Assembly (NCBI GenBank): GCA_002713695.1
Contig: PAUB01000001.1
Location: forward strand, 397,325-461,324
Source: Opitutaceae bacterium
GTDB lineage: Bacteria > Verrucomicrobiota > Verrucomicrobiia > Opitutales > Opitutaceae
Length of the DNA: 64,000 nucleotides
Reading direction: 5' to 3'
Shown: positions 1,481-28,447 of the stretch, piece after piece
Numbering within the stretch: position 1 is the stretch's first letter
How the letters are laid out: every line of letters starts with the position of its first letter
Made by a program: the position numbers and the translations under genes
The notes under the pieces: model-generated
Seen by the model: only the letters and a program-made list of their open reading frames with translations
What the model was told of the DNA's origin: nothing
The model's database searches: none

Positions 1481-1485
1481 CGACG

Positions 1486-2097: not shown

Positions 2098-2120
2098 GTT
2101 GGTAATAGTTGGGAGTGGGA

Positions 2121-2834: not shown

Positions 2835-2842
2835 GGTGCCGA

Positions 2843-5696: not shown

Positions 5697-6955
5697 TGGT
5701 GTCCAACTGTAAGGAATCTGACATCAGTGATTTCGGCGACCGTTTTTTCAAGATATCGATTCGCATCAATCACAACGGGGCTCGTCATCTTGGCGAAGAG
5801 AGTGGGCCAATCATAATCGAGAAAGTCGGGCCACTCGGTGCAGACCACAACGCAATGAGCCCCGAGCAGCGCTTCCTCGATCGATGACACGACGGGAATA
5901 TCACTGTGTTCATTATCGACCGATTTAATGAGGGGATCAAAGGCTCTCACTTCCACGCTATCGGCAAGAAGATGGCGACATAGTTCGACGGCAGAGCTTC
6001 GGCGCAGGGTATTGGTGTTGGGCGTATAGGCCAGCCCGAGCACAGCCACAATGGGGCGATCGACATTAGCGAGTGCGGTTTGAGTTTTTCGAAATGCCCA
6101 CCCACGGTGGCGATCATTGCTTTCCTTGATCGCGGGAATGAGTGAGAGGGGGATATCATTTGCTGAACCAAGTTGACTGAGGGTGACGACGTCGCGAGCG
6201 AGAGTGCCGCCTGCAAAGGGCCCGCCGGGGCCAAGGTAAGCACGGGTGCCAATACGCGGATCACTCTTTAGACCCATGGCGACTTCTTGCGCATCGGCCC
6301 CCACGGTTTCGGATAGACTGGCGATCTCGTTGATATAGGCAACCGAGAGCGCGAGGAATGAATTCAGCGCGTGTTTCACCATCTCTGCAGATTCAGTCCG
6401 CATCCATATGAGTGGAGCTTCGATTGGCGAAAGCAGGGCCTCGAGCCGAGGACGTCCATCCGGGGGCGTCCCGACAATGATGCGCGCCGGATGCTCGAAG
6501 GCGTCGATGGCTTTGCCGAGACGAAGGTTTTCGGGGGAACAGGCGAAGATTAGTTCAGGATAGTGTTGGGTCAACTGAGCGCAGGTTCCGACCGCTAGTT
6601 GAGATGATAAAAGCACAACTGTGCCGACGGACATCTCTGGGAGCACTCGGTGCAATCGAGAGAAGACCCAATCGAGATCGGATCGATCATCTGCGTCCAC
6701 TGGAGTGTCGTAGCAGATCCATAGAACCTCGGAATCCTTGGATTTTGTAATATCGCTGGAGAAAGTCAGTTTGCCACTTTCCACGCCAGCAGCGATGAGT
6801 GTATCGAGTTCTGGTTCGTGCAAAGGGGCAATCCCGGCCCGGAGCTTGGCAAGCACTGGCTCATCGAAATCCAGACCGATGACGCGATGATGTCTTGCCA
6901 TACATGCAGCGGTGACACATCCGAGATGCCAGAGGCCGAGAATCGTTATCTTCAT
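5693..6955 (-). CDS. UDP-glucose/GDP-mannose dehydrogenase family protein (atypical: catalytic Cys position is Thr)
   Basis: Family motifs 'ESAEMVKHALNSFLALSVAYINE', 'DPRIGTRAYLGPGGPFAGGTLARD' and 'VAVLGLAYTPNTNTLRRS'. Start chosen at 'MKITILGLWHLG' (6955). The track ORF extends to 7036, into the upstream gene. Confidence 0.8.
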   Translation of the reverse strand: MKITILGLWHLGCVTAACMARHHRVIGLDFDEPVLAKLRAGIAPLHEPELDTLIAAGVESGKLTFSSDITKSKDSEVLWICYDTPVDADDRSDLDWVFSRLHRVLPEMSVGTVVLLSSQLAVGTCAQLTQHYPELIFACSPENLRLGKAIDAFEHPARIIVGTPPDGRPRLEALLSPIEAPLIWMRTESAEMVKHALNSFLALSVAYINEIASLSETVGADAQEVAMGLKSDPRIGTRAYLGPGGPFAGGTLARDVVTLSQLGSANDIPLSLIPAIKESNDRHRGWAFRKTQTALANVDRPIVAVLGLAYTPNTNTLRRSSAVELCRHLLADSVEVRAFDPLIKSVDNEHSDIPVVSSIEEALLGAHCVVVCTEWPDFLDYDWPTLFAKMTSPVVIDANRYLEKTVAEITDVRFLTVGHQ

Positions 6956-6968
6956 GAAATCAATATGG

Positions 6969-8624
6969 TCACAGGGTGGGGAGATTAGGACGTTGATAGA
7001 GTGACATCTGCCGGTCGAGGAATCGAAATTCATCAATTTTCACTAGATGTTGATCGCACCAAGTCTGTAGAAAATCGCGGCTTTTGACCATCTGTCGGTC
7101 ATAGGGCCAATGCCCATGTCCGGGCATTTCATCCGTCAGCACGAATAAGTGGCAACGTTGCAAGCGATCCAGTAAATCCTCGTCCGCTATTTCGAGAATG
7201 TTAATCGGCAGCATTACACGGATCGGTATCCATACCTTGTGGCGCTCATAGCACATGAGTCGCAAAACCACGCCGTCGAACGAATCGGAGATTCGATCAA
7301 ATCCAACATAAGGTTCGGCGAGTTCCGGAGTGAGTGAGGCAGAGTGAATCTTATCGGCAAAACGCCGAATATTGTGGTTGGCGTTGAGAAACTCTTGGGA
7401 GTGAGGAGATGGAATCTGTCTGTATAGAAAATAACCGCTGCCGGATAACAATGTGAGAAGCAAGGCAACGGGAGCATACCAGCGGACCTTTGATTCATGA
7501 TGGCTAGTTGTTTCAATACAGCGGATCATCGCGGCCCAAAACCACAGCAGTAGCAAAAATAGACCAGGCACTAGAATGCCCAGCACATATGCCGATTTCT
7601 GTCGATGTAAGCAGAGGATGACAGCTGGAAGGAAGAAGAACGCCAATCCAGTGAAGAGCCAGTCGCGATCCGGCCATTTAATGGTGAACTGGCGTCCAAT
7701 AATCACAGCTTGGCCCAACATGACGGTCACTGCGGCGATTACGACTAGTAGGAAAGCCCCTACGTGTAGACTCATGAACCAGCTTAGAACATACTCGATG
7801 GAAGCTCCAATGCTTAAGCCGGATGCGCGGGCGGCACTCTCAGCTCCGATGATATGTCCTCCCCAATAATAATTAAGAATCCAAGTTCGGTTAATCCAGA
7901 ATTGGGGGCCGGCGATAATGGTGGCGACTAGACCAGCCAGAAGGAGATTCAACCACCGTTGGCGGCGTTCGCCGGTGATGGCGATCCAGATTCCAATCAC
8001 TAGAAAAATGGGGGCAAAGTATGTTCCCGTGAGAAACCGCTCCAGCACCGTAACCCCCACCGATAGACCGAAAAATAGGGACCACCCACGTGAACGAAAG
8101 CCGCGGGTTAACAGAGCCAAGAGTGACGTGACTCCCATCAGGCACATAGCCCCATGATCGAGACGAAAATCGACCGCCGATCCGGGGCCACCTGACCATG
8201 GTCCGGCCAAGGCCAGAAGAAGGCCAAAGCCCATCCAACTGAGCACACGCGAGCCGCTCATTCGATAAATAACCAACAGTAAGGCAACCTGCCATGCGAG
8301 GAAGGCCAGCATGTTTAGGCTGAGAGCGGCACTTCGTGATGGTCCGACCAACTCGAAGAGCGGAACCGCCAGAATATCGTGGAGCGAGCCTTGTGCCGCC
8401 GGGTTCGTAAAAGCGTATTCTACACCGGCCCAGAATCCATGGGCCTGCGAAGCGTCGTAGCTTTGGTAAACTTCCGAAAGATACTGGATCTGGTCACTCC
8501 ACTGGGGGAAAATACTGGCGTAGTGACGAGAGGTGGCCTGATCGAAAACGAGAAACTCCAGAACAACGACCAGTGTGATAACAAGCCACATGCGCCAGGA
8601 TGGAGACTGAGGCGTTGGTTTCAT
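6969..8624 (-). CDS. Polytopic membrane protein (~11-13 TM) with ~130-aa C-terminal soluble domain; possible GT-C-type glycosyltransferase
   Basis: 551 aa and hydrophobic through most of its length. An acidic/aromatic motif 'PQWSDQIQYLSEVY' follows the first TM. It lies inside the glycan operon. Confidence 0.5.
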   Translation of the reverse strand: MKPTPQSPSWRMWLVITLVVVLEFLVFDQATSRHYASIFPQWSDQIQYLSEVYQSYDASQAHGFWAGVEYAFTNPAAQGSLHDILAVPLFELVGPSRSAALSLNMLAFLAWQVALLLVIYRMSGSRVLSWMGFGLLLALAGPWSGGPGSAVDFRLDHGAMCLMGVTSLLALLTRGFRSRGWSLFFGLSVGVTVLERFLTGTYFAPIFLVIGIWIAITGERRQRWLNLLLAGLVATIIAGPQFWINRTWILNYYWGGHIIGAESAARASGLSIGASIEYVLSWFMSLHVGAFLLVVIAAVTVMLGQAVIIGRQFTIKWPDRDWLFTGLAFFFLPAVILCLHRQKSAYVLGILVPGLFLLLLWFWAAMIRCIETTSHHESKVRWYAPVALLLTLLSGSGYFLYRQIPSPHSQEFLNANHNIRRFADKIHSASLTPELAEPYVGFDRISDSFDGVVLRLMCYERHKVWIPIRVMLPINILEIADEDLLDRLQRCHLFVLTDEMPGHGHWPYDRQMVKSRDFLQTWCDQHLVKIDEFRFLDRQMSLYQRPNLPTL

Positions 8625-9610
8625 TGGTGGCCCTTGGAACGTGCTTCATAGACCCAATGGTTGGCTTCAAGCCAGCGCAGAGTCTGCTTAATGCCTTCTT
8701 CGATGGTGAGCTTTGGCCGCCATCCAGTAGCTTGGATTTTCTTTGTATCCAGAAAGATAAACGGATTGTCACCGATCCAACCCCGTTCACCACCCGTGTA
8801 TTCCAGGGTGGGGGTAAGTCCGAGGCTAGAGCAGATGAAGCTTATGCTGTCGTTAACCTCAACATATTCGGGGGTGCCGAGGTTATAGATTTGAGTATGA
8901 TGCTTGGCTTCGCGCGCCGTATGGTTGCGCGTGACGTGGAGCACAGCGTCCACGCAGTCTTGAATGTAAAGGTAGCTTTTGCGCTGTTTGCCATCTCCTA
9001 GGATTCTGAGTCGATCGGGGTGTTCGATAAGTTGCTGATAGAAATCGTAGACATGGCCATGAGTGTAACGCTCCCCAAGTATCGATACGAAACGGAAGAT
9101 GTAGGCTTCGTCGATTTGGTTTCCTTCCGCATAGGATGAAATGAGGGTTTCTCCCGCTACCTTGCTCGCGGCATAGAGAGAGGTTTGGATGGGAAATGGA
9201 GCGTCTTCAGGCGTAGGGATTAAGGTCGCTTCACCATAAGTGGATCCGGTCGAAGAGAAGGCGATGCGACGCACTCCATTGGCGCGCATGGCTTCGAGGA
9301 CATTTGAGGTAGCAATCGTGTTTTGCTCGAGATCACGTGCGGGGTGTTCCCATCCGTCCTTGATATCGGCATTGGCCGCGAGGTGAAAAACGAAGTCGGC
9401 ACCGGCCATAGCCTTGGTCAGCGCCACGCGATCGAGATTATCACCTCTGATCAGCTTAAAGGAGGGGCTTTTCAGAGCACCTGATAGGAAGCTTTCTTGC
9501 CCGGTCGTGAAGTTATCCCAACCGGTGACCGTGACGCCATCGGCAAGGAGGCGATCAACGAGTGAAGAACCAATGAAGCCAGCGGCGCCGGTTACGAAGA
9601 CTTTTTGCAT
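8621..9610 (-). CDS. NAD-dependent nucleotide-sugar epimerase/dehydratase (extended SDR)
   Basis: 'VFVTGAAGFIGSSLV' and 'YAASKVAGE' (YxxxK); 329 aa. Confidence 0.85.
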   Translation of the reverse strand: MQKVFVTGAAGFIGSSLVDRLLADGVTVTGWDNFTTGQESFLSGALKSPSFKLIRGDNLDRVALTKAMAGADFVFHLAANADIKDGWEHPARDLEQNTIATSNVLEAMRANGVRRIAFSSTGSTYGEATLIPTPEDAPFPIQTSLYAASKVAGETLISSYAEGNQIDEAYIFRFVSILGERYTHGHVYDFYQQLIEHPDRLRILGDGKQRKSYLYIQDCVDAVLHVTRNHTAREAKHHTQIYNLGTPEYVEVNDSISFICSSLGLTPTLEYTGGERGWIGDNPFIFLDTKKIQATGWRPKLTIEEGIKQTLRWLEANHWVYEARSKGHQ

Positions 9611-9686: not shown

Positions 9687-10481
9687 TCAAAGGCGAAAAG
9701 CCAGCAGGTTGATAAAAGCTTTTGCAGCCAGATTTTTATCCAACTCCATTAGATCCACTGCGATGTCTTGGTCAGATGAGTCCGCGAGTGTCACTTGGAG
9801 CTCGAGTTGGCGTAATGTATCAGCTAACTGCTCAATTTCAGTGCCTGCCAATCGAAGGCCATGCGGCCAAAATTCAAAATAGATTTTCAGGTCGCGATTT
9901 GCATCAAGTAAGTCGGAGACTCCTTTTAGGGCTTCACCTTCCCAGCCCTGCACATCCATCTTAATGAAGTCTAACCGTCGTCCTTTCAGAACATTCTTCA
10001 GAGCGCAGATAGGGACTGAGACTTGCTCGTTATGCAGTGCCGATCCGGTAGTTTTGCCCACTCGGTTATCACCGGAATTCATCGCATTTCGCTGCAGAAT
10101 GATTTCGCCTTCGGTCGCGCCGACGGCGCATTCAAACACTTCCACTTGCGATGCATTATTCTCGGCCAGATTTTTACGCAGGGTGGCCGCCATAAGCTGG
10201 TCCGGTTCAAAGGAATAGATCTGACCTGTCGGTCCGGCGCAGCGGGAGAGATAGAGCGAATAGAGCCCAATGTTGGCGCCCACATCGGCAACATGCATAC
10301 CAGGTCGAATCACCTTTGAGAAAAAGTCAGCCTCCTCGCGACCCATTCGACCAAGACGATGCATCCAAAGGTAGAACCAGCGGTCGAATGAAGGTGCGCG
10401 CATGGAAAACCCCCACACTTTTAGCCTTTGTCGCCATAAGGGGAGGCGATTGAAGGTGGCGATCAGCGAACTCAGTTTCAT
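9687..10481 (-). CDS. FkbM-family SAM-dependent methyltransferase
   Basis: 'VADVGANIGLYSL' and 'DFIKMDVQGWEGEALKG' are typical FkbM signatures. Confidence 0.8.
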   Translation of the reverse strand: MKLSSLIATFNRLPLWRQRLKVWGFSMRAPSFDRWFYLWMHRLGRMGREEADFFSKVIRPGMHVADVGANIGLYSLYLSRCAGPTGQIYSFEPDQLMAATLRKNLAENNASQVEVFECAVGATEGEIILQRNAMNSGDNRVGKTTGSALHNEQVSVPICALKNVLKGRRLDFIKMDVQGWEGEALKGVSDLLDANRDLKIYFEFWPHGLRLAGTEIEQLADTLRQLELQVTLADSSDQDIAVDLMELDKNLAAKAFINLLAFRL

Positions 10482-10497
10482 ACGGGCTGAACAGAGA

Positions 10498-11916
10498 TCA
10501 GGTGAACTTCAGCTTGCGGGCGGCAAAAGCGACCATGCGCAGCAACAGCCAACCGTGGCTCCAACGATGGATATTGGTGCTGCCGTAGGTGCGCTCCCTA
10601 TAGCGTATGGGCACGTCCGCTATTTTTAGGTTCAACTTGGCGGCGCCAAAGAGTAGGTCGAAATCACCGAAAGGATCGAAGTCACCGAAATAACTCCGAT
10701 TTGCGGAGATCCGATCATAGTGAGCACGACTCAGCACTTTGGTGCCGCACAGGGTGTCTTTCACAGGTTGCCCGAGTAGCCATGTGAAGATTATCCCAAA
10801 GGTCTTATTCGCGCAAAGGTTGAGAAACTGCATGGCTTTTTCATCCATGGGATAAACCAACCTCACGCCGTTGGCAAAATCTGCGTGTCCACTAGCAAGC
10901 ACTTCGTAGAACTTGGGTAATTCTTCGGGAGGCATGGTGAGATCTGCATCAAGAATCATGAGGATATCGCCAGTGGCGGCGGAGTAACCCATGCGGACGG
11001 CATCTCCTTTGCCTTTGCCGGTCTGTTGCATGATTTTAATCTTCAGATCCGGATGCTCTCGCTCGACTTTTTGGATCTGCTCCCAGGTGTCATCTTGGGA
11101 GTGCCCCTCGACAAATATCAACTCGGTGCCTGCACCCATCTCGGGAGTGCGGGCGACTGCGGCTGCAATGTTACCCGCTTCGTTACGGGCTGGGATAATG
11201 ACGGATACAGTGCGCGCTTTTGTCGGGCGAATGCGAACTGGGCGTGCCACGCAAAATACGGTCATGCAAAACCAGCTCAAGACTGGGGCCAACCAACGAT
11301 TGATAAGATACTCCAAACCTAGACATCTTACGGGAATGAGCACGCGCGGTTGGACGTGTAGAGGGTTCCAGTCTGATAATTCCAGTAAGTTGCGGACGTC
11401 ATCGTCACCCAGCCAGCTGTATTGTGGTTGGGGAGCCCGTAGGCCAAGTATCCTCGCAAGCGCAAACAGCGGTCGCCAGAGCGACGAATAATAGTTAATA
11501 ATCAATCGAGTGTCGGGGTGTGTGACCGAATGTAATCGCTCAAACAACAACTGCACATCTGCCGCTAAATTCAAAGTGTCCGATATAATGATACAGTCGA
11601 ACTTCTCCGTGAGGGAAAGATTCTCTCCGGCTTGCACATGAAAATCTGCGTCTGGCACTAGCTCTCTCGCGGTAGTCAGTTGGGCTTCTGATAAGTCCAA
11701 GCCAACCTTGCGACTGGCATTCAATTGTGAGAGCAACTCGCCAGAACCGCAGCCTATCTCGAGCACCGAGGCCCCGCGAGGAATGGTGAGGTTATAATAA
11801 CGAGCTAGCCATTTTCGGTAGTAGCGACCAGAGCTGCTATGAGTGGTAGGAGCGGCATCGAAAAACGAACGGATTTTCTTCAGGTGCTGGCTTGTGAGTT
11901 CTGAGGCTTCATTCAT
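10498..11916 (-). CDS. Bifunctional class I SAM methyltransferase (N-terminal) / family 2 glycosyltransferase (C-terminal)
   Basis: Methyltransferase motif I 'VLEIGCGSGELL'. A hydrophobic linker follows, then GT2 'VSVIIPARNEAGNI', 'ILMILDADLT' (DxD) and a C-terminal membrane-associated tail. Confidence 0.75.
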   Translation of the reverse strand: MNEASELTSQHLKKIRSFFDAAPTTHSSSGRYYRKWLARYYNLTIPRGASVLEIGCGSGELLSQLNASRKVGLDLSEAQLTTARELVPDADFHVQAGENLSLTEKFDCIIISDTLNLAADVQLLFERLHSVTHPDTRLIINYYSSLWRPLFALARILGLRAPQPQYSWLGDDDVRNLLELSDWNPLHVQPRVLIPVRCLGLEYLINRWLAPVLSWFCMTVFCVARPVRIRPTKARTVSVIIPARNEAGNIAAAVARTPEMGAGTELIFVEGHSQDDTWEQIQKVEREHPDLKIKIMQQTGKGKGDAVRMGYSAATGDILMILDADLTMPPEELPKFYEVLASGHADFANGVRLVYPMDEKAMQFLNLCANKTFGIIFTWLLGQPVKDTLCGTKVLSRAHYDRISANRSYFGDFDPFGDFDLLFGAAKLNLKIADVPIRYRERTYGSTNIHRWSHGWLLLRMVAFAARKLKFT

Positions 11917-11917
11917 G

Positions 11918-12685
11918 TCAGTTTTTTTCTTTTTCGAGCACGACTAGTAAGCGCGCAGCAAAGATCTTTGGGAACGGCTTGGTGAGGTAGTCGAGCGCGC
12001 GCATCAACCCGTGCAGGAAGCGTCCGCCTAGTTGGGGCCCGGAAAATCCTCCAGAAGCGAAGTAGTCGAAGGAAGGGATGGGGCTCACTTCGCTTAATTT
12101 CCATCCATCAAGTCTATCGTGACCTTGGCCCCACCAGAAAAGCCGAGTGGCTGATCCCTGAGCAGCGTAATAGTCGGACTGCGAGGCAGCAAAGTCGTCT
12201 GGGGCATCCCAGGTAATGGGATCACGCACGGCGACAGGTTCGTGATGGCAGTAATGATACACTAGTCTCCCTAACCAGCTGGCCGCGGGTTCGAACAGGA
12301 TTAATCGTCCGCCGGGAACCAGCACACGGTGGAATTCCCGCAGGGCTGAGCCTGGATATCGGAGATGGTGCCAGACATCAAATAGGATGAGATGGGAAAC
12401 CGATTCATCGGAGAAACTCAGCTCATAGCAGTTTTCGTTGCGATCCAGCCAAGGGTTGGAGAATAGATCGGTGGTGATGCATTGCGGGATGACGTCCTTT
12501 ATTTGCCCCATGCCGGAACCCAGCTCGACCACTGGTCCCGGGATGACGGAATCGATACGAGTCGCGATTCGGCGGTAAAAATCATGATAGATCTCCCGTA
12601 GCATGGGTTTGCGTGCCCATGCCTCGCGATTTTGTTGGATCTCGACGTTGTGTTGTTCGAGGGGAAGTTCTGCAGCGGTGCTCAT
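11918..12685 (-). CDS. Class I SAM-dependent methyltransferase
   Basis: 'VVELGSGMGQI' motif I and 'LVPGGRLILFEP' post-I/II motifs; 255 aa. Confidence 0.75.
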   Translation of the reverse strand: MSTAAELPLEQHNVEIQQNREAWARKPMLREIYHDFYRRIATRIDSVIPGPVVELGSGMGQIKDVIPQCITTDLFSNPWLDRNENCYELSFSDESVSHLILFDVWHHLRYPGSALREFHRVLVPGGRLILFEPAASWLGRLVYHYCHHEPVAVRDPITWDAPDDFAASQSDYYAAQGSATRLFWWGQGHDRLDGWKLSEVSPIPSFDYFASGGFSGPQLGGRFLHGLMRALDYLTKPFPKIFAARLLVVLEKEKN

Positions 12686-19160: not shown

Positions 19161-20108
19161 TCAGGCGGGACGGTCAAAACCGGCGCTGTGCTCCACAATG
19201 AACTTGGGGCGGGAGCGCACTTCTTCATAAATCCGGCCGATATATTCGCCGAGGATACCTACGCTAATCAACTGGATGCCACCGAGGAATGAGATGATGA
19301 TTACCAAGGTTGGGTTGCCCCATAGAATTGTCCAACCCATGAACTTGTATAAAAGATATATGGCCATGAGGAGAAAGGAAAGGGTGGCGATAATGAAGCC
19401 CATGATCGTGCTAAGCTGGAGTGCGTAGGTGGAGAAACAGAATATACCGTTGAAGCCGATGCGTAGCGAACCGAAGAAGCGGTTGTAATTGGTTTCTCCC
19501 GTGTGCCGTGTTGGCCGATCGAAGGGGATGATGATTTGCTTGAACCCCACTACTGCGACCATGCCACGCAAAAAGCCGTGAGATTCCTTGAGTTTAACCA
19601 GTTCGTTTACCACCCGGCGCGACATTAATCGGAAATCGCCGATGTTAGGGGGGATTTGCACGTCAGCAATCTTGTTGATGACCTTGTAGCCGACTGCGGA
19701 TACAACCTTTTTGATCCAAGGCTCACCCGTTCTTTGGCGGCGCTGAGGCAGCACCACATCGTAACCCGCGCGCCACTGGGCTACCATATCCGTCACGAGT
19801 TCAGGTGGATCCTGCATATCCACGTCCATCACGATAGCCGCTTCACCAGTTGAATACTGCATGCCGGCCATTGTGGCCATCGGTTGGCCGAACCGTCGTG
19901 AAAATTTCAGTAGCTTGATTCGCTCGTCGCTAGCGCGGGCCTCAAGGATGACGTCTTCTGTCCGGTCTGGTGAAGGGTCGAGAGCGAAAATAATTTCGTA
20001 GTTCTCAGTACTGGCGCTTAGCACCGGCCGGATCTGGCGTAGAAACTCTGGGATATTCTTTTCTTCCCGAAAAACTGGGACGATAACAGATAAGAGGACA
20101 GGATTCAT
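19161..20108 (-). CDS. GT2 polyprenyl-phosphate glycosyltransferase (GtrB/ArnC/DPM1-like) with two C-terminal TM helices
   Basis: 'LSVIVPVFREEKNIPEF', 'IVMDVDMQDPPE' (DxD) and a C-terminal hydrophobic pair; 315 aa. Confidence 0.8.
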   Translation of the reverse strand: MNPVLLSVIVPVFREEKNIPEFLRQIRPVLSASTENYEIIFALDPSPDRTEDVILEARASDERIKLLKFSRRFGQPMATMAGMQYSTGEAAIVMDVDMQDPPELVTDMVAQWRAGYDVVLPQRRQRTGEPWIKKVVSAVGYKVINKIADVQIPPNIGDFRLMSRRVVNELVKLKESHGFLRGMVAVVGFKQIIIPFDRPTRHTGETNYNRFFGSLRIGFNGIFCFSTYALQLSTIMGFIIATLSFLLMAIYLLYKFMGWTILWGNPTLVIIISFLGGIQLISVGILGEYIGRIYEEVRSRPKFIVEHSAGFDRPA

Positions 20109-22942
20109 GAAGCGGGAGTGATCTTGATGGCTTTCAGCAGCACGGTTACTGGCCGATTATCCGGAGCTGGTAAAGACTGGGTGCAGTCAAATCGCAGTTC
20201 AATCTTAACTTGCTGTGCGGCTGTCGGGAGTAGTGCTTCCAAGTTTACTGTGCCGGCTGTAAGGTCCTTAGTTAATAGGCTGTGTCCATTCGCAAGCAAC
20301 TCGACCCTGTTAGTGGCAGGAGACTGGCCAGGTATTTGAGGCAGTAGCGCCTGAACAGTGATCTTATCTCCAGGATTGACTGGCCCAAGCACGACGAAAG
20401 TGTGGTGCGACCCCCATCCATCCTCATAGATGCCAGAATATTCGAGGTTATTTAGCGTGAGCAGATCGTTTGGAAAGCGTGAAATCTCCTGCGGGAGTTT
20501 GCGCGACTGATAGGCATCCTCGTCGATGGCAGATATGTCTCGGCAATACCCCAATGCAAGTCGTGTATCCAGAGATAGATTCTGATTGTAGATTCCTTGT
20601 AGATTACGTGCAGGCAGGCCTAAGGGGATAGGAGGCCGACCGAGATCGATTGCAATGTAGGCGGCTCCGTTGATCCATGTTGGTTCCACCGGAGGGGAAT
20701 ACACATTGGCGCTGCCGGATCCGACGAAACCGAGTCTGGCAGCATCATCTACTCCGAAACGAACCAGGGCATCTTCTGGTAGCTGAGTCCGGCCTTGTCC
20801 GAGAACCGTGGTCGACATGGATAGGCGCAGCCGGATTTTTTTCGTGGGATTGAGGACACGCATGAGCAGATGTCGTCCGATAGCGAAAAATTGCTCTTCT
20901 GGTTTAAATACGTCCGCTTGCGACCTATAGACAGCAATATGTCCGGCGGCTCCCAAGTAGTAGTGTTGGCCTTCTTGGGATTGGACGAATACTAGATGGT
21001 TTCTCAGATCGAGTAGCTGCGCGTAAGTGAATAATCCGTTGGAGGCGAGGAATGGTCTGTCCCCAAGCTTGTTGAAGGCCCGAAGCTCGGCTTGCGAAGT
21101 GATGAGAAGATCTTCCGCATGAGGTGAGCGATCTGCTGTGCGAGGGGCCCAAAAATGCAGTCCTAGCACTTGGTTCTTACTGTAGACTTCGGTTAGGATA
21201 TACTGTCCCACAGCCGTGACTGTGTCGGCCGTCGCGTCTCCAGGAGTCATGCGCCAAACCCAAGATGGATACGGCTTTGAGGTACGTCCCATAATGTTCG
21301 CGATAACTAATTGGCTCAGAAATACTGGCTGTGCATCTTGTCCCTCAAGCATCAATAGCTTGTTGATTGGTGCGCTCGCGGTATCTGACCAAGCTGGCCT
21401 GTCGGGTAGGACACCGCGTGACTGGGAAGCATTCAGTAGTTCACCTTCGACACTCCTTTCAAGATGGGTGAACGAGTAAGTGTAACGCCAAGTCCCCGTA
21501 ATCCACACTGCCAGCAAGAGGACGTATAACACGAGAAGGGTTCGTCGGTGTCGACAAGCTACGGCCTTTCGCGTGAGTTCCAATATGAGAAAAGGCAGGG
21601 CGAACATGGCTAGCTTGAACAATCCGAAGCCATTGCTGGTATAAAAAAGCAATGCCCCGATTGGTGCCATGGATACTAGCAAGGCAGCTGGCACGGTGAA
21701 GTTACGGCGCCAGGACAGCATAAGTGCGAGTGTGCTTACTGCAGCGGCTAATCCGCCAACCAGCGCGAATGATGTCCAAGGTTCCGCGTAGCGGGTGACA
21801 AAAACATCGAAACCAAAGAAAAACGCCGGACCTGACGGCATCAGGAAATAAGGAAAAAGAGAGATGCGAGCTATCGTGGACGCCGAGGATTGAGCGTTCA
21901 ATCCATCGGCCGCCTGACCTAGCAGTGTCAGGCTGGTGCTGAGGGCATTATGCCGAAGTAGCAGGAAAACAATGACTAGTGCGGCAGCAGCTGTGGGTAA
22001 CATGCCGGGGAAGCCTCGTCGCCGCGACCTCATCTGCACGATCATGTATAGTATCCAACCTAGAACCAAAAATGGAAGGACCTCGGGATAATAGATGCAC
22101 AATGCGGCAATCAAGATAGCACTCGCTCCAGCGAGTCGCACCCGTCCTCCACGCGAAGAAGGAAAGCGGGTGCGCGCGATCAGAACTAAAATGGCGGCTA
22201 GCAAGCCCAAGCCGGCAACTTGGGCAATGAGCTGATACATAATTCCTACATGCCACAGCGGTGCGACTCCGAGGGTGACGGCCGTAATCAAACCAATGAG
22301 ACGCCCGGCAATCGTTGCGCTAGCCAGTGCAATGATGGCGGTCAACTGGGTTAAGCAAAATGCCAAGAGGGTAGGCATGAAGATGGCGATGGGCTTCAGA
22401 TCAAAGATACCTGCCACGTAGGCCAACATATGCTCGCTGCCGAAACGCATCAGTCCTGCGACATAAAACATCCAATAAAGTTGAGGATAATCCTTACCAT
22501 CCAGATCGACCGGCTGGGGGACATCATAGAATCCGTGGTGGAGAAACCGTTCAGCCCCCAGACAGTAATTGGTCATGTCGTCGTTGCCATAGCCTACCCA
22601 AGTCCAGCCGTAGATCAGCAGGGGCCAGCCACTTAGGAGTAAGACTGCGAGAAGAATAGTGACTGTCTTGCCTAGACCTATTGGGGCGCAGATTCTCTTC
22701 CATATGAGTATTCCGATTCCTATCACACTTGTGGCGGCGAATAACCAGTGCGCAAAGGAGTCAAAGGGCAGACCAGCCTGATTCAGGAGCATGCCTAAAA
22801 GACTCAGTGCCGCCATGCCGAATGTAGGTGCGAGTAACCAGCTGCGTGTGCGGCCACACCTCAGACCAAGTAGAATCTGAAGTACCTGTCCAGTGAGCGT
22901 AAAATGCCCGAACAGCACCAAGGTTAGTAGTAATGGCAGCAT
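20105..22942 (-). CDS. Large polytopic membrane protein (putative GT-C-type glycosyltransferase or polymerase) with ~440-aa C-terminal soluble domain
   Basis: 945 aa. The loop motif 'GYGNDDMTNYCLGAERFLHHGF' follows early TMs, and the N-terminal ~500 aa are hydrophobic. The C-terminal half is soluble and ends in a beta-sandwich-like segment. The stop overlaps the downstream GT2 start. Confidence 0.5.
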   Translation of the reverse strand: MLPLLLTLVLFGHFTLTGQVLQILLGLRCGRTRSWLLAPTFGMAALSLLGMLLNQAGLPFDSFAHWLFAATSVIGIGILIWKRICAPIGLGKTVTILLAVLLLSGWPLLIYGWTWVGYGNDDMTNYCLGAERFLHHGFYDVPQPVDLDGKDYPQLYWMFYVAGLMRFGSEHMLAYVAGIFDLKPIAIFMPTLLAFCLTQLTAIIALASATIAGRLIGLITAVTLGVAPLWHVGIMYQLIAQVAGLGLLAAILVLIARTRFPSSRGGRVRLAGASAILIAALCIYYPEVLPFLVLGWILYMIVQMRSRRRGFPGMLPTAAAALVIVFLLLRHNALSTSLTLLGQAADGLNAQSSASTIARISLFPYFLMPSGPAFFFGFDVFVTRYAEPWTSFALVGGLAAAVSTLALMLSWRRNFTVPAALLVSMAPIGALLFYTSNGFGLFKLAMFALPFLILELTRKAVACRHRRTLLVLYVLLLAVWITGTWRYTYSFTHLERSVEGELLNASQSRGVLPDRPAWSDTASAPINKLLMLEGQDAQPVFLSQLVIANIMGRTSKPYPSWVWRMTPGDATADTVTAVGQYILTEVYSKNQVLGLHFWAPRTADRSPHAEDLLITSQAELRAFNKLGDRPFLASNGLFTYAQLLDLRNHLVFVQSQEGQHYYLGAAGHIAVYRSQADVFKPEEQFFAIGRHLLMRVLNPTKKIRLRLSMSTTVLGQGRTQLPEDALVRFGVDDAARLGFVGSGSANVYSPPVEPTWINGAAYIAIDLGRPPIPLGLPARNLQGIYNQNLSLDTRLALGYCRDISAIDEDAYQSRKLPQEISRFPNDLLTLNNLEYSGIYEDGWGSHHTFVVLGPVNPGDKITVQALLPQIPGQSPATNRVELLANGHSLLTKDLTAGTVNLEALLPTAAQQVKIELRFDCTQSLPAPDNRPVTVLLKAIKITPAS

Positions 22943-22945
22943 GGT

Positions 22946-25900
22946 TTAGTAACGCATCCCATGTCGATGCAGCCACTCAATCATGGCACTGCGGTTGATT
23001 TCGTCGTTAAGGTGTTTGAGTATCTCCTTCGGAGGAACTTGGCGCTCATGTGTGCGGCGGCGCAGCTGTGTCATTTCATTTTCGCCTACCGATTGGATTT
23101 TAGCGCTGGTTTTTTGTTCACCGTGTGACCGGAAACATCCGAGGAAGTAGGGTAGACGGCGGATGTTGCAACCGGCTTCCTCGAAACGGAGGAGGAGATC
23201 CCAATCGAGTGCGAACTGAAACGAATCGTCGAGCCCACCGATTTCCTGATAATGACGCGCCCGCCAGAACATCGTTTCCTGTGGCACGAGGTCGAACCAT
23301 TTGAGCGTGTCCGAATGGTATCTGGGGAGAAACCAGCGCCCGATTTCGCGATCCTGTTCATCGATGATTACGCGATGGCCGTAGATTACATCTACTTCTG
23401 GATGGCGGGCAAAATAGTTGCCGACGAAATGGAGAGTGCCCGGCATCAGTATGTCGTCGGAGTTTAACCATCCCATGATGTCATCGGAGGTCGGGTGAAG
23501 TTGGGCGAAGCCGCGACGTATCGCGTCCGACTGACCTTTGTCAGGCGCGCTTTCGGCATGTGATAACCGTGAAATATGGCGGTTGATTATCGTAGTGCTT
23601 TCGTCAGTGGACCCACCATCCTGCACTCCATAGGCTAGATTGGGATAATTCTGGTCGAGCACGCTCAGCATGGTCCGCTCAAGGAATTGCCCTTGTTGAT
23701 AAGAAGGAGTCGCAAGGCAGATTCGAGGCCATGTCGAAGGGCTTGCTTTTCGGGGAAATTTCTCCAGCTGTTGCGTTCGGGGATGATATTGCTGGAGTTT
23801 ACCCAAAGGGAATGGTGTGACATCGGCTAAACGGCCTTGCCAATTATTTAGCATCCGTTGCGCGAAAGAAGTGGCGGCCTTGCGTGACCTGAGCTTCTCC
23901 GCGTGTTCCAATTTGCTCAGACGGTTGTGCTTATGCTGCAACTGACGGCGGGTTACATCCAATTGACATCGCAGGTCGATAACCTCATCGGCGAGAGCGG
24001 GGAGGTCAGGGCTGCCCTTTATAGGGTCCTGAGTGAACTCGGTCAGGGAGCGTTTCGTTTGCCTCAAGGCGGTGTCGAGTTTCTGAATCAAGGTCAACCG
24101 CTCGGCGGCGGTGGCGTGAAGCTGGGTTATTTCCCTTTTCAGTTCTGTTCGGTGTGTGGTGGCATCTTCTATCAGTTCGAGGATTTTTTGCTCTTTGCTG
24201 ATTAATTCATCCGATTGATCTGCAGGGGCGGCCTCGGAGGTGTCATTGAGGCCAAGAACGATATTTTGGATGGTTTCATCCGATAATATTTGTGGGGGCA
24301 GTGGATCCAATTCGGCCGACAATCTCTGGAGCCACGGGATGGTTTCGTAAACTCGTGTGAATGGAGTCACGACAGTGCTAATCATCGCACATTCCACGAT
24401 CTCGGCGATCTTGGTCCAGAACCAAGCACATCGGCTGGCTTCCTCCGGTGCCATTGATTCCCATAAGGTTTCAGCGGCCCAATTGGCGGCAGGGGCCGGC
24501 AGGTCGACCGAAATGTCCCGGAGCTGCAGTTGGTGGGATGCCCAGGGCCAGTGCGTTGCGAGTGAAGGATGAGAGATATGTGTCTGCAGCATGCGCAACT
24601 GACGATAGGCGAGTACAGGTGTAGGTAGACAAGAGTCCGCGGCGACGTACTCAACGTCGAACAGACGGACTTTCGTGCCATCGGGAGAAGGAATTAGATT
24701 TTCCATGATCCAATCCGGTGACCACAGGCACCACGGCTTCGTTTGAATCTTGTTTAGCGAAGCCATGGCAAATGACTCCTGCTTCTCGACAAAGCTTAAA
24801 ACTCCGGCGGCATATGTAAGTAAACCGTTGAGCGAAAATTGGCTCTTCAGCTTTTCCACAAAACGCTCCCAGCTTCCTTGGCTGGCAAATGGGAGACAGT
24901 CCTGATACAGGCCGTAGTTATGACGCAGAGTCTGGCCAAGGAGTTTTTCGTATTCAGCAGCTGAGTTGGTGGCGGCACCAATGGAATGACGCAATGATTC
25001 CCAGAGGGTGGGGCATGATGAAATTTCCTGGGTCGTTGATTCGCAGTCGGCTGTGATGATCGGCGCGATGAATTCAGCTTTCGGGTTTCCGGGGGCGTGG
25101 GCAGGGAGCAGCGTTTCAGGCTCAAATTTCTTCCCCGAAAGAAACTTGCGCTGCACCAATCCTTGCTCAGGAAAAAATACGGCACCGATTGTCTGTGAAG
25201 GTTTCCGTCTCAGAGGGAAATAGTGAATTTGATCGGTTGCCATTTTGGCGTCACGGGCACCCGGTTTGGGGGAAACGATCAGGAAAGAATTTGCGAAATC
25301 TCCCGCGGTGCCCTCATCAGCAAGTGAGCGGAATACCGAAGGTTCGTCGAAATGATGGTCGCGTGGGCTGCGCCATGCGGGGGAGTTGTCGATGAGCCTA
25401 TCCGCTGCAAACCGCCAGTTGGGACGATCATCAGGAACGATGACCTTTGTGAATTTGTAATCTGGGAATGGATATTGAAAATGCGTATCCGGGTAACCCG
25501 CTTCATTGAACAGCCGGGTGATTTGCGGTCGAGAAAAGGTGCGAATTGCCGGACGCTTTTTATCAAGGGTTCGGTATCCTTCAAGTCCCACAGATGTTTG
25601 CCCGAAATGATCCTCGGGAGCGCCAGCAAAATATTTTAGACCTAGCCTGTTTTCAATGGTCACAACGCAGCGGCCGCCGGGTTTCAGTAACCGGAAGGCT
25701 TTTTTAAGCATCGTCACATAGGGCGAGGCCTCCTGGGAACCAGCGTAAATCGCAGCATATTCCAGCACTCCATTGAAAATCACCCAATCAAAATTGGGGC
25801 TCCCATCCAGCAAATAAAAATCAGTGCTGAGCAATGCGGAATGATATGGATTAACATGCTTTCGCAACAGCGAGGCGGCAGCTTGAGCTCGTGAGACCGA

Positions 25901-26284
25901 AGCTTCGATGGAAAGGGTTTGCGCACGGCTCCACAGATACTGACTGACAGGACCGCACCCGCTACCCACTTCAAGTACACGATCCGTGGAAACCAAGGGG
26001 AGGGATCGCAAGACGTTGGCCCGATCCGGGGACGTGTTGTATTCGAGAATGAATCGTTGTTCTTTGGTGAGAGGGTGCCTTTGCGCCCACGCGGCAAGCT
26101 GGTTTGGTTCTTGTTGGTTGTAATCAGTGATCAGGTCTTCCAGGCCGTCTGCATAATCTGCTGATGTTGCGAACGGGGTCACCAGCCAAAATGGCCCCGG
26201 AGGGCTTGATGGCAGTGGAGTCGCCGAAGTATCTGCGGGTTTTAGCAGGTCAAATTGAACGAAAGGATCAGGAGAGATAGTCAT
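22946..26284 (-). CDS. Multidomain protein: class I SAM methyltransferase, kinase-like region, ~125-aa coiled coil, GT2 glycosyltransferase (WbdD-like terminator fused to a GT)
   Basis: Methyltransferase motif I 'VLEVGSGCGPVSQYL' (aa ~103-117) and 'LKPGGRCVV'. Kinase-like catalytic-loop pattern 'SPDWIMENLI' (D-x4-N, aa 524-529) and 'RLFDVEY' (aa 540-546). Heptad-rich 'DELISKEQKILELIEDATTHRTELKREITQLHATAAERLTLIQKLDTALRQTKRSL...VIDLRCQLDVTRRQLQHKHNRLSKLEHAEKLRS' (aa ~690-815). GT2 'ICLATPSYQQGQFLERTMLSVLDQNYPN...VQDGGSTD...NSDD' (aa ~855-1060). Confidence 0.7.
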   Translation of the reverse strand: MTISPDPFVQFDLLKPADTSATPLPSSPPGPFWLVTPFATSADYADGLEDLITDYNQQEPNQLAAWAQRHPLTKEQRFILEYNTSPDRANVLRSLPLVSTDRVLEVGSGCGPVSQYLWSRAQTLSIEASVSRAQAAASLLRKHVNPYHSALLSTDFYLLDGSPNFDWVIFNGVLEYAAIYAGSQEASPYVTMLKKAFRLLKPGGRCVVTIENRLGLKYFAGAPEDHFGQTSVGLEGYRTLDKKRPAIRTFSRPQITRLFNEAGYPDTHFQYPFPDYKFTKVIVPDDRPNWRFAADRLIDNSPAWRSPRDHHFDEPSVFRSLADEGTAGDFANSFLIVSPKPGARDAKMATDQIHYFPLRRKPSQTIGAVFFPEQGLVQRKFLSGKKFEPETLLPAHAPGNPKAEFIAPIITADCESTTQEISSCPTLWESLRHSIGAATNSAAEYEKLLGQTLRHNYGLYQDCLPFASQGSWERFVEKLKSQFSLNGLLTYAAGVLSFVEKQESFAMASLNKIQTKPWCLWSPDWIMENLIPSPDGTKVRLFDVEYVAADSCLPTPVLAYRQLRMLQTHISHPSLATHWPWASHQLQLRDISVDLPAPAANWAAETLWESMAPEEASRCAWFWTKIAEIVECAMISTVVTPFTRVYETIPWLQRLSAELDPLPPQILSDETIQNIVLGLNDTSEAAPADQSDELISKEQKILELIEDATTHRTELKREITQLHATAAERLTLIQKLDTALRQTKRSLTEFTQDPIKGSPDLPALADEVIDLRCQLDVTRRQLQHKHNRLSKLEHAEKLRSRKAATSFAQRMLNNWQGRLADVTPFPLGKLQQYHPRTQQLEKFPRKASPSTWPRICLATPSYQQGQFLERTMLSVLDQNYPNLAYGVQDGGSTDESTTIINRHISRLSHAESAPDKGQSDAIRRGFAQLHPTSDDIMGWLNSDDILMPGTLHFVGNYFARHPEVDVIYGHRVIIDEQDREIGRWFLPRYHSDTLKWFDLVPQETMFWRARHYQEIGGLDDSFQFALDWDLLLRFEEAGCNIRRLPYFLGCFRSHGEQKTSAKIQSVGENEMTQLRRRTHERQVPPKEILKHLNDEINRSAMIEWLHRHGMRY

Positions 26285-27645
26285 TGGATTTCCTCCACAT
26301 TAATTTCTGCAGGGAGATGAAACATACCCAGAAATGGTGCGGTTTCCGTATTGTAATCCCAGTTAATCGTAATGGGCCCGAGCCATGGCGTGCTTGCGAA
26401 ACGGCCTCCTAGATTGGGTTGGTCATGCGGTCGGCCCAGCCCCAGTTGAAAAGAATATAATCCCGCTTCGAGTTTGAGGTGTATGCGAGTTTCGAAACAC
26501 CAGAGTTGCCCGTCCTGAATCGCTACCGGGGATAAACCTTGAATCCGACTGCTGAGACTGGAAACGAGTTGATCGTGCCGATTTTTTAATTCCAACGCCA
26601 CATGGATGCTCGCTTCGTTTTTTGCCCGGAAGTATCCACGGATAATGCAAGTGGATCCCATCCGGTGCTTCAGGGCGGGGTTTTCATCCAGATCGAGCAC
26701 TTCCACCGCGACCAGCTCAGCGGGGGAGCCTTCGGAAGTATCTGCAGGATCGTTTCGCCACATCGGCTGTGAGGGACCTCCGGCATGACGAGTGGGTTTA
26801 AGCGCCGCCTTCGTGGGAGGAGCCACGAAATCCTTGTCTTGTTTAACGGAGTCGACCTCCCTGAAATATCTGGAAATGGCCTGTTGCGAATCACCAAAAA
26901 ACACGGACTGACCTTTTCTCAGATATAATGCCCGGCTGCACAGATCACGCACGCTGGCCATGTCATGAGATACAAATAATATGGTTGTGCCCCGGGCTCT
27001 TAATTCAGCGATGCGTCGGAAACATTTTTGCTGGAAAAAGAAATCACCGACACTCAAAGCTTCGTCGATGATGAGAATGTCAGGTTTAATCGCGGTTTGG
27101 ACAGCGAAAGCCAGTCGGACCAGCATGCCGCTGGAGTAAGTTTTGGTGGGTTGCTCGATGAACTCACCTATGTCGGCGAAGGCAGCAATGTCAGCGAATC
27201 GCTTTTGCATCTCTTCTTTTGGCATGCCGATGATCGCGCCGGTCAAGAAGATGTTTTCGCGTCCCGTAAACTCAGGATTAAAGCCCGCGCCGAGTTCGAG
27301 GAGTGCGGCGACTCGGCCTTTGATGGAAATGCTGCCCGACGATGCCTGCAAGGTTCCGGCAATGATTTGGAGTAGTGTGCTTTTACCTGCCCCGTTTCGG
27401 CCAATAATACCCACGGCCTCGCCGCGCTTCACGTCAAAAGTTATATCAGATAGTGCGAAGAAATCATGATACCCAGCGGTTGATTTGAGTTGGAATGCTG
27501 AAGCGAGTGAGCCAGGCATTCCTTTAGCAAGGCTTGCCCATATCGGACTCATAATCCGATCCGATGGGTCCCGCCAGATACGGTAGGATTTGGTCAAGTT
27601 CCGCGCCGAAATGGCGATGGAATCTGCGATGGGTTTAGAGCACAT
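26281..27645 (-). CDS. wzt: Polysaccharide ABC exporter ATP-binding protein with C-terminal carbohydrate-binding-type extension
   Basis: Walker A 'GRNGAGKST', signature 'YSSGMLVRLAFA' and Walker B 'ILIIDEALSVGD' (TagH/Wzt type). An extra ~170-aa beta-rich C-terminal domain follows a Pro/Ala linker. Confidence 0.85.
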   Translation of the reverse strand: MCSKPIADSIAISARNLTKSYRIWRDPSDRIMSPIWASLAKGMPGSLASAFQLKSTAGYHDFFALSDITFDVKRGEAVGIIGRNGAGKSTLLQIIAGTLQASSGSISIKGRVAALLELGAGFNPEFTGRENIFLTGAIIGMPKEEMQKRFADIAAFADIGEFIEQPTKTYSSGMLVRLAFAVQTAIKPDILIIDEALSVGDFFFQQKCFRRIAELRARGTTILFVSHDMASVRDLCSRALYLRKGQSVFFGDSQQAISRYFREVDSVKQDKDFVAPPTKAALKPTRHAGGPSQPMWRNDPADTSEGSPAELVAVEVLDLDENPALKHRMGSTCIIRGYFRAKNEASIHVALELKNRHDQLVSSLSSRIQGLSPVAIQDGQLWCFETRIHLKLEAGLYSFQLGLGRPHDQPNLGGRFASTPWLGPITINWDYNTETAPFLGMFHLPAEINVEEIQ

Positions 27646-28447
27646 CGGAAAAGGCAGGTTTCATTTTGCGAAACATCACGTAACCCACATGGCAGGTGAC
27701 GATTGAAAAAAGATAGAGGTAGCCCAGATGGTGGTAATTCATCGGTTGGGCCCACAAGGCCGTATTTCGAGCCAACTCAATCGCCAACAAGAGAGGATTG
27801 AATTTCAAGAAAACCCACATCGAGGCAGGGATCTTTGTCGCCGAAAAGAAAACCGCACTCGAATACATCAGCGACAGGGTCAGAAATTGCATAAGTTGTC
27901 CGATATCACGGAAAAAGACGCCTAAGGCGGCGAAGATCCACGTCACTCCTAATGCGAGCAGGATGAGGGGAAAAATAATGACCGGTAGCCAGATCAACTC
28001 GGGATGAATGGTCCGTCCAAAAACGACCAAAAAAATCAGAGCCAACCCCAAGCTGATCAGCAGATGAAACCCTGCGGCCGCAACATGGGCCGCCGGTAGA
28101 ATTTCCATTGGGAAAACCACCTTTTTCACAAAATTGGGATTCGCGATGATGATGGTGGGGGCGACGGCCATGACCTCACCGATGAAGCCGAAGAGAGTCA
28201 GTCCGAAAAATATGCCGATCGCATAGTCGACTCCGGTCTCGTTCTCAATGATCCCGAATCTACCCCCAAAGATAAAGCCAAACACAAATACGTAGAGGCC
28301 CAGCATTAGCAGGGGGTTAAAGAATGACCAAAGCAGGCCTAAATGACTGCCCTTGTGGCGAATCTGCACAGTGCGCACTGCGAACTGGCGGAGCAGGTCG
28401 CGATGACTCCAAAGATCATGGCAATATGGAAGTAATCTTCTGAGCAT
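27635..28447 (-). CDS. wzm: ABC-2 type polysaccharide exporter permease
   Basis: 270 aa with six hydrophobic segments. The N-terminus 'RDLLRQFAVRTVQIRHKGSHLGLLWSFFNPLL' is typical of Wzm/TagG. It overlaps the wzt start by 11 nt. Confidence 0.85.
   Translation of the reverse strand: MLRRLLPYCHDLWSHRDLLRQFAVRTVQIRHKGSHLGLLWSFFNPLLMLGLYVFVFGFIFGGRFGIIENETGVDYAIGIFFGLTLFGFIGEVMAVAPTIIIANPNFVKKVVFPMEILPAAHVAAAGFHLLISLGLALIFLVVFGRTIHPELIWLPVIIFPLILLALGVTWIFAALGVFFRDIGQLMQFLTLSLMYSSAVFFSATKIPASMWVFLKFNPLLLAIELARNTALWAQPMNYHHLGYLYLFSIVTCHVGYVMFRKMKPAFSDVL

Follow-up and report, generated by a model that had tools for sequence, protein, structure and literature searches.

The window analysed here, a 64,000-nucleotide stretch of an Opitutaceae genome of the Verrucomicrobiota (contig PAUB01000001.1, positions 397,325 to 461,324), encodes a 1112-amino-acid (aa) multidomain protein, P0001, next to the genes of a Wzm/Wzt-type exporter. 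Positions given below are those of the window, and all features of this gene unit lie on the minus strand, where the order is wzm, wzt, the P0001 gene, the gene of a 945-aa membrane protein, that of a GtrB/PgfS-like glycosyltransferase of family GT2, and then others. The first gene of the unit, wzm (27635..28447), encodes an ABC-2 permease (PF01061 ABC2_membrane, 77 bits). The product of wzt (26281..27645) is the ATPase of the ABC exporter and carries, besides its ABC_tran match, a C-terminal Wzt_C domain (31.6 bits, cut-off 30.4) at aa ~296-454, corresponding to 26284-26760. The P0001 gene itself (22946..26284) was identified from the open reading frame (ORF) list and its translation and begins with an ATG codon. 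As this start overlaps the stop codon of wzt (ATGA, preceded by a GGAGGA motif), the gene lies downstream of wzm-wzt in the sense of transcription, not upstream of wzt/wzm as had been claimed in an earlier reading made from the sequence by itself (hereafter the sequence-only reading), and it is translationally coupled to wzt.

P0001 is a soluble protein in which a methyltransferase is followed by a kinase-like domain, a coiled coil and a GT2 module. It possesses no transmembrane segment, the highest Kyte-Doolittle mean over 19 residues being 1.17. The gene is present as a single copy in the 3.5-Mb genome (99% complete), in which no paralogue was found at E<=0.001, and sixteen full-length orthologues were identified elsewhere (46-65% identity). 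The ORF proposed in the sequence-only reading is real and each motif that it quoted stands at the residue given for it; the domain order that it had read from the translation agrees with Pfam and with the structural models.

Methyltransferase region and kinship to Klebsiella O7 ORF6

An extended class I S-adenosylmethionine (SAM) methyltransferase is predicted at aa ~40-340 (25265..26167) from weak Pfam matches, from its fold and from homology to the N-terminal part of Klebsiella pneumoniae O7 ORF6 (ORF6-N). Several weak class I methyltransferase matches were obtained with Pfam at aa 90-264, and the fold matches of this region in the full-length model (Foldseek) are SAM methyltransferases. Its landmarks are a glycine loop (LEVGSGCG), the ENRLGLKYFAGAPEDH block and an FPFPDYKF block, with VLEVGSGCGPVSQYL located at aa 103 and LKPGGRCVV at aa 200.

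ORF6 of K. pneumoniae O7 consists of an N-terminal methyltransferase, a cryptic kinase, an Ig-like carbohydrate-binding module (CBM), a coiled coil and two C-terminal GT2 modules (Kelly et al. 2024, PMC11231755). The two GT2 modules polymerise rhamnose, and the protein was demonstrated in vitro to attach methylphosphate to the terminal rhamnose; it modifies no residue but the terminal one, and export requires it (PMC11231755). Kinase activity is gone in the D441A mutant, and the K. pneumoniae row of the supplementary alignment reads ..FIDAVPQNIIL.. at this position (PMC11231755). Orthologues of ORF6 have been described from alpha- and gammaproteobacteria as well as cyanobacteria (PMC11231755).

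BLASTP comparison of P0001 with ORF6-N gave 32% identity over 306 aa (E 4e-33), the alignment spanning aa 82-377 of P0001 and covering the methyltransferase together with the initial strands of the kinase-like domain. The ORF6 sequence used comprised the first ~443 residues, rebuilt from the machine-read K. pneumoniae row of SI Fig. 9 with small errors, and its glycine loop was corrected from a published primer. The ENxLGxKYFAG/PEDH and PxPDYK blocks and the glycine loop are common to both proteins.

A phmmer search of the full library with aa 1-690 returned 3699 relatives at E<=1e-3, 807 of them at E<=1e-30. Nearly all align within aa ~40-400, mostly stopping near aa 340, and just two of the 150 among the relatives listed align past aa ~470. 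Those sampled are of two classes: proteins of 600-750 aa, composed of the methyltransferase and an unannotated region, some with coiled-coil-like matches, and proteins of ~1100-1300 aa with added glycosyltransferase (GT) modules (of four scanned, two have a pair of GT2). The unannotated region carries the motif hDxxPxNhh ... hIDxEW near residue 420-460 in 138 of the 145 relatives of at least 450 aa. We place the N-terminal half of P0001 in the ORF6(O7)-N family, as a divergent and enlarged member, and outside the WbdD family. P0001 is a distant Verrucomicrobial relative of Klebsiella O7 ORF6, a capping enzyme by which O-antigen chains are limited, and not a new system.

The family as a whole (P0128-P0274 type, with 3699 library representatives) combines the extended methyltransferase with an unannotated domain of ~220 aa bearing hDxxPxN...hIDxEW. 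This domain falls outside every Pfam model, and in the K. pneumoniae O7 ORF6 member it is a proven kinase.

Kinship to WbdD, the ancestry assumed in the sequence-only reading, was examined by sequence, profile and fold searches and was rejected. No WbdD chain was recovered at E<=10 with phmmer or with a sixteen-sequence profile against all PDB sequences, and WbdD was absent from the top 50 Foldseek matches of both the full-length and the middle-domain models. PDB sequence searches of P0001 gave GT2, weak methyltransferase and generic coiled-coil matches only.

Kinase-like middle domain

The domain at aa ~345-672 (24269..25252) is predicted from modelling and Foldseek to resemble kinases of the aminoglycoside phosphotransferase (APH)/choline-ethanolamine-kinase type. 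Searches with aa 340-690 found no match among PDB sequences and none in Pfam or NCBIfam at E<=0.1 to 10, and the two profile libraries were equally silent on the middle domains of five relatives. Foldseek searches with the full-length model were swamped by GT2 and methyltransferase matches that hid this domain, so aa 331-690 were modelled separately (pLDDT, the predicted local distance difference test score, 84.9; predicted template-modelling score, pTM, 0.85). The top 50 PDB matches of this model are all protein-kinase-like structures. The best of them is the ethanolamine kinase of P. vivax (2qg7, E 1.5e-4); further matches are APH(3')-Ia (4feu), LxmK kinase, the putative APHs 3dxp and 3csv, Rv3168 and human choline kinases (2ckq). 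A kinase-like identity of APH/choline kinase type is supported at the level of the predicted fold.

A predicted catalytic loop and metal-binding motif, D524-x4-N529 ... D543-V-E545-Y546 (24647..24715), was delimited by invariance, topology and hhalign. The corresponding sequence motifs are SPDWIMENLI at aa 522, containing D524 and N529, and LFDVEY at aa 541. All five named residues are invariant among the sixteen orthologues, as are R360, R379 and E429 in the N-terminal half of the domain. The predicted secondary structure runs from a strand to the loop with D524-x4-N529, two short strands and then D543, which in the model is the arrangement of catalytic loop and metal-binding Asp found in the kinase superfamily. 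A hidden Markov model of the orthologues' middle domains gave weak matches to 154 relatives (E 0.05-10), consistently at the catalytic loop. Alignment of orthologue with relative middle domains by hhalign placed D524, N529 and D543 onto hDxxPxN...hIDxEW (probability 83.6%, E 8e-6, 63 columns). The family motif contains D441 of ORF6, and D524 aligns to that Asp.

APHs and choline-ethanolamine kinases share with P0001 a bilobal protein-kinase-like fold, the D-x4-N loop and a metal-binding Asp ~14 residues further on. P0001 differs from them in having no match to PF01636 or PF01633, no His before the catalytic Asp and no invariant Lys in strand beta3, and its identity to their structures is 8-15%, with TM-scores of at most 0.46. 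At ~330 aa the domain is about 100 aa larger than that of its relatives, many of which likewise have no conserved Lys at the aligned N-lobe position and carry an Arg equivalent to R360. Of the kinase fold and Lys/Asp set expected in the sequence-only reading, the fold (Foldseek top 50) and the invariant Asp/Asn/Asp were recovered; an invariant N-lobe Lys was not.

Coiled coil and hinge

Between the kinase-like domain and the GT2 module lie two long helices. Segment 1 (aa 692-751, 24032..24211) maintains one uninterrupted heptad register within an AlphaFold helix at 688-751, and its heptad score of 0.53 compares with a shuffle mean of 0.18 (p=0.0006). Segment 2 (aa 761-802, 23879..24004) corresponds to an AlphaFold helix of the same extent and is also heptad-periodic relative to shuffles (p=0.005). 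They are separated by a Pro/Gly hinge at aa 752-760 (QDPIKGSPD, 24005..24031), recognised by the break in the helix and by pLDDT values below 50 at aa 753-758; the motif DPIKGSPDLP begins at aa 753. A strict heptad scan caught the second helix only, while both were recovered by testing the register against shuffles and by a relaxed window scan, which over the whole of P0001 flagged aa 696-754 and 760-798 and no other region. Two long helices elsewhere in P0001, used as controls, showed no significant heptad periodicity. The heptad-rich coiled coil with a Pro/Gly hinge that had been noticed in the sequence-only reading is in this way upheld by both the modelled helices and the statistics.

In the alignment of the sixteen orthologues the coiled coil is the sole poorly conserved, indel-rich region, the rest of the protein being 60-80% conserved. 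Segment 1 is 43, 50, 57, 64 or 71 residues long in ten of the orthologues, which are steps of whole heptads; the lengths in the other six are 61, 70, 75, 77, 84 and 86. The second part is near-constant (74-82 residues in fourteen of sixteen), and most orthologues have prolines at the position of the hinge. If extended, the ~100 helical residues of P0001 would span ~15 nm (1.5 Å per residue).

GT2 module and exchange of N-terminal heads

The C-terminal GT2 module of GT-A type (aa 827-1112, 22946..23806) contains QDGGSTD and NSDD motifs and was matched by Pfam GT2 models at aa 858-984 (PF00535, 46 bits) and aa 853-1047. Residues D889, D894, D943 and D944 are invariant among the orthologues, and the DxD-type metal site is intact. 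Its best structural matches are the A2 domain of the chondroitin polymerase K4CP, a Leptospira GT (6p61) and the fucosyltransferase WrtF, and heparosan synthase was also found among the PDB matches. A polymerising or a priming function may be proposed for this module.

Many Opitutaceae proteins carry the module at 50-78% identity, C-terminal to other N-terminal domains, and its range extends to Planctomycetota, Chloroflexota, some Proteobacteria and further Verrucomicrobiota. Within the family, roughly 38 of 81 species-level genomes encode a copy (>=47% identity); a search of the other 80 for the P0001 head revealed no full orthologue. In all six proteins scanned the module is C-terminal, the heads being GT9, carbamoyltransferase, APH plus GT2, FkbM methyltransferase, GT4 or unknown, and a crude scan detected heptad segments between head and GT2 in four of these six. 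Varied heads on a cassette of coiled coil and GT2 are as expected for putative alternative terminators.

Four genomes of the same family contain open frames of ~1340-1380 aa (G015:C10:29459-34130, G075:C94:2710-7940, G046:C26:97465-102193 and G060:C24:257141-261985) in which a methyltransferase of the P0001 family (28-32% identity) lies ~4 kb upstream of the GT2 module within one open frame. In two further loci (L038, L061) the methyltransferase and GT2 matches are similarly spaced. The size of these frames is nearer to that of the 1414-aa K. pneumoniae O7 ORF6.

Co-variation of the Wzt C-terminal domain with the head

A wzt gene with a Wzt_C domain was found directly upstream in all four orthologue contigs examined, with an adjacent wzm-like gene in three of them. 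Downstream, where the contig continues, they encode a ~940-aa protein without a Pfam match, homologous to the 945-aa membrane protein of the window, and a GT2. For comparison between loci, Wzt was divided into its ATPase domain and its C-terminal domain. The latter is 50-56% identical to that of the window in four of four loci with a methyltransferase-kinase head, and 36-43% identical at best, or undetectable, in loci with other heads. The Wzt C-terminal domain follows the P0001-type head, not phylogeny, in line with a predicted role of this domain in reading (binding) the cap installed by the head.

A locus from a Cephaloticoccus metagenome-assembled genome (L005:6366-14068), compared with window 20105-28447, has flanks that are 93-97% identical and a wzm that is 96% identical, its MacAB-TolC genes being 79-97% identical to those of the window. 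Its Wzt C-terminal domain is just 39% identical, its protein with coiled coil and GT2 bears an unrelated head of 220 aa, and the 946-aa membrane protein encoded after the latter shows 31% identity only. The pattern resembles a serotype-type exchange of cassettes inside a single lineage.

Comparison with characterised terminators

The module order of K. pneumoniae O7 ORF6 is that of P0001. The methyltransferases are homologous, both proteins have an unannotated APH-like kinase in which D441 corresponds to D524, and in both a coiled coil precedes C-terminal GT2. Both are encoded with wzm/wzt, the Wzt having a C-terminal binding domain. The two differ in that P0001 has one GT2 and ORF6 two, and in the apparent lack, judging from the model, of an Ig-like CBM between the kinase-like domain and the coiled coil of P0001 (short elements only, aa 660-690). 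The kinase-like domain is ~330 aa in P0001 and 223 aa in ORF6, PDWxxEN / FDVEY takes the place of the IDAVPxN / IDxEW of ORF6, and a Pro/Gly hinge divides the coiled coil, unlike that of ORF6. The host of P0001 belongs to the Verrucomicrobiota (Opitutaceae), and its locus adds GtrB, large membrane proteins and a heptose pathway.

WbdD of E. coli O9a and K. pneumoniae O3 resembles P0001 in the order methyltransferase, kinase, coiled coil. It is a terminator of an ABC-transporter-dependent glycan, its coiled coil is an established molecular ruler, and a module of the associated Wzt binds the cap. WbdD lacks GT modules, ends in a region that binds the membrane and the polymerase, and recruits WbdA as a separate polymerase, whereas P0001 ends in a GT2. 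Sequence and structure are both reported to set the ORF6-type kinase apart from that of WbdD (PMC11231755). WbbB of K. pneumoniae O12 is, like P0001, a single polypeptide with terminator and GT modules at opposite ends of a coiled coil; its terminator is a GT99 Kdo (3-deoxy-D-manno-octulosonate) transferase, not a methyltransferase-kinase, and it has two polymerase GT modules (GT102, GT103). The union of a methyltransferase-kinase terminator and GT in one polypeptide, which had been pointed out in the sequence-only reading, is already characterised in ORF6 (PMC11231755), and P0001 reveals no new principle. It extends the terminator-polymerase design of methyltransferase-kinase, coiled coil and GT from Klebsiella O7 to the Verrucomicrobiota, the surface glycans of which are almost unstudied and for which no literature on such systems was found.

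Proposed role in capping and export

We infer the following for the activities of the enzymes, the chemistry of the cap, the effect of the ruler and the function of the GT2. P0001 is probably a cytoplasmic chain terminator fused to a glycosyltransferase, acting on a polyprenol-linked glycan that is assembled at the inner membrane and exported by Wzm/Wzt. The GT2 would act on the growing chain at the membrane and would most likely form the backbone polymerase, in part or as a whole. The two-segment coiled coil would oligomerise P0001 and keep the N-terminal enzymes apart from the GT2. When a chain had grown as far as the distal head, its non-reducing terminal sugar would be phosphorylated by the APH/choline-kinase-like domain, with D524 as the catalytic base and N529 and D543 binding Mg-ATP. 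The SAM methyltransferase would then methylate that phosphate, creating a methylphosphate cap and stopping extension. Recognition of the cap by the C-terminal carbohydrate-binding domain of Wzt would restrict export to finished chains, and the GtrB-like enzyme and the large membrane proteins may decorate these afterwards in the periplasm. A methyl- or methylphosphate-type cap, with a coiled-coil spacer and cap-dependent ABC export, is the best-supported reading of the locus. The architecture, Wzt_C and the linkage to the exporter fit the capped, length-controlled glycan that had been predicted from the sequence, the identity of the cap being presumptive. A role as cap and ruler is supported by the ATGA overlap with wzt, by the co-variation of the Wzt C-terminal domain with the head and by the whole-heptad differences in segment 1 among orthologues.

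Several points weigh against this interpretation. The full-length AlphaFold model is of moderate confidence (pLDDT 67), and the TM-scores to kinases are modest (0.3-0.46; 3csv 0.42-0.46) with high root-mean-square deviations. No N-lobe Lys is invariant in the alignment of the sixteen orthologues, and aa 331-690 have no Pfam match at E<=10, nor do the middle domains of five relatives. The hhalign match is local, just 83.6% in probability over 63 columns, and the relatives' alignment used for it was picked by motif pattern (95% of relatives pass a loose pattern); the proline of the family motif DxxPxN is, moreover, substituted in P0001 (D-W-I-M-E-N). The hinge could let the helices fold back, shortening or abolishing the spacing; the single GT2 makes a polymerase role a guess; three other methyltransferases are encoded in the locus, so that of P0001 need not be the capping enzyme; and the co-variation of the Wzt C-terminal domain comes from four loci, a small sample.

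The middle domain might be read as an inactive pseudokinase, an acceptor-binding or scaffold module, leaving the methyltransferase alone to terminate the chain with a methyl-only cap, as in methyl-capped systems like that of E. coli O8. Such a module would agree with Pfam and PDB sequence searches that returned no kinase, with an N-lobe without the invariant Lys and with kinase TM-scores of at most 0.46, and also with a domain ~100 aa larger and far more divergent than in the relatives, two of the 150 listed reaching past aa ~470. We nevertheless regard it as improbable: the phosphotransfer residues D524, N529 and D543 together with E545 are invariant though the domain is only 38-54% identical among orthologues, the essential D441 of the active enzyme from K. 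pneumoniae O7 lies within this motif, and many relatives also do without the aligned N-lobe Lys, keeping the Arg equivalent to R360. No more plausible is a decorating role for the N-terminal enzymes, which would O-methylate or phosphorylate repeat units throughout the glycan, or have a different substrate, with the coiled coil providing oligomerisation or a scaffold and no ruler. Such a role would suit a coiled coil split by a hinge and a locus rich in methyltransferases (FkbM, class I and a methyltransferase-GT2 fusion), which suggests a heavily methylated glycan. It sits poorly with a Wzt C-terminal domain that tracks the head, not phylogeny, as would be expected if the exporter reads the chain-end product of the head, with the behaviour of the homologous enzyme of K. 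pneumoniae O7, which modifies just the terminal residue and is required for export, and with the confinement of whole-heptad length variation to the coiled coil.

The GT2 is the part of the capping interpretation for which an alternative has the greatest weight, even though that alternative is still the less likely one. Here the module would not polymerise the chain; it would add an adaptor or primer sugar, or the last sugar, then modified by the head, and others would polymerise, namely the 472-aa methyltransferase-GT2 or membrane proteins of GT-C type. P0001 has one GT2 against the two GT modules of the characterised coiled-coil polymerases, a second Leloir-type GT2 is encoded nearby, and the unusual conservation of the module (50-78%) where other genes differ suits a common, non-variable step. 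However, membrane-proximal GT modules are polymerase parts in all characterised systems and single GT modules making more than one linkage are documented (PMC11231755), and the best PDB matches of the module include the polymerase domains of K4CP and heparosan synthase.

For the chain terminator proposed here, the orthologues are a natural series of coiled coils differing by whole heptads. The head swaps on one GT2 module, each accompanied by co-variation of the Wzt binding domain, form another. Both series are ready test cases for models of the molecular ruler and of cap recognition, and they may supply parts for the glycoengineering of chain length and end groups.

Neighbouring genes and sugar pathway

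Downstream of P0001, Pfam and NCBIfam scans identified a polytopic membrane protein of 945 aa (20105-22942), which belongs to no Pfam family, and a GtrB/PgfS-like polyprenyl-phosphate glycosyltransferase of family GT2 (19161-20108). Further large membrane proteins (including one of PMT_2 type), three methyltransferase genes and sugar-nucleotide genes lie beyond the latter. The genes of the 945-aa protein and the GtrB-like GT2 adjoin the gene for coiled coil and GT2 in most loci with enough flank. The GtrB-like protein is 72-84% identical among Opitutaceae-type loci, and this arrangement suggests that the three may form a conserved functional trio.

A broader picture can be drawn tentatively, and we put it forward as speculation. 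The Opitutaceae and other Verrucomicrobiota might use one coiled coil and GT2 chassis, always adjoined by a ~945-aa membrane protein along with a GtrB-like enzyme. On this chassis terminating heads would be swapped together with the matching Wzt C-terminal domain, and the ruler would be tuned in whole heptads; the expanded, Lys-less domain of P0001 would then be a new branch of sugar-phosphorylating kinase-like enzymes. If true, cap chemistry and chain length would be set here by a plug-and-play system of natural origin.

The three further methyltransferase genes (window 9687-12685) are one of FkbM type, one of class I fused to GT2 and one stand-alone class I gene, and are 70-83% conserved in related loci. 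Window positions 920-3826 and 3823-9610 encode GmhA (SIS), a GHMP kinase, a nucleotidyltransferase and GmhB (HAD), along with other sugar genes, among them those for an epimerase, a UDP-sugar dehydrogenase, an SDR (short-chain dehydrogenase/reductase) and a GFO oxidoreductase. As the set of GmhA, GHMP kinase, nucleotidyltransferase and GmhB is typical of GDP-heptose synthesis, the exported glycan may contain a modified heptose.

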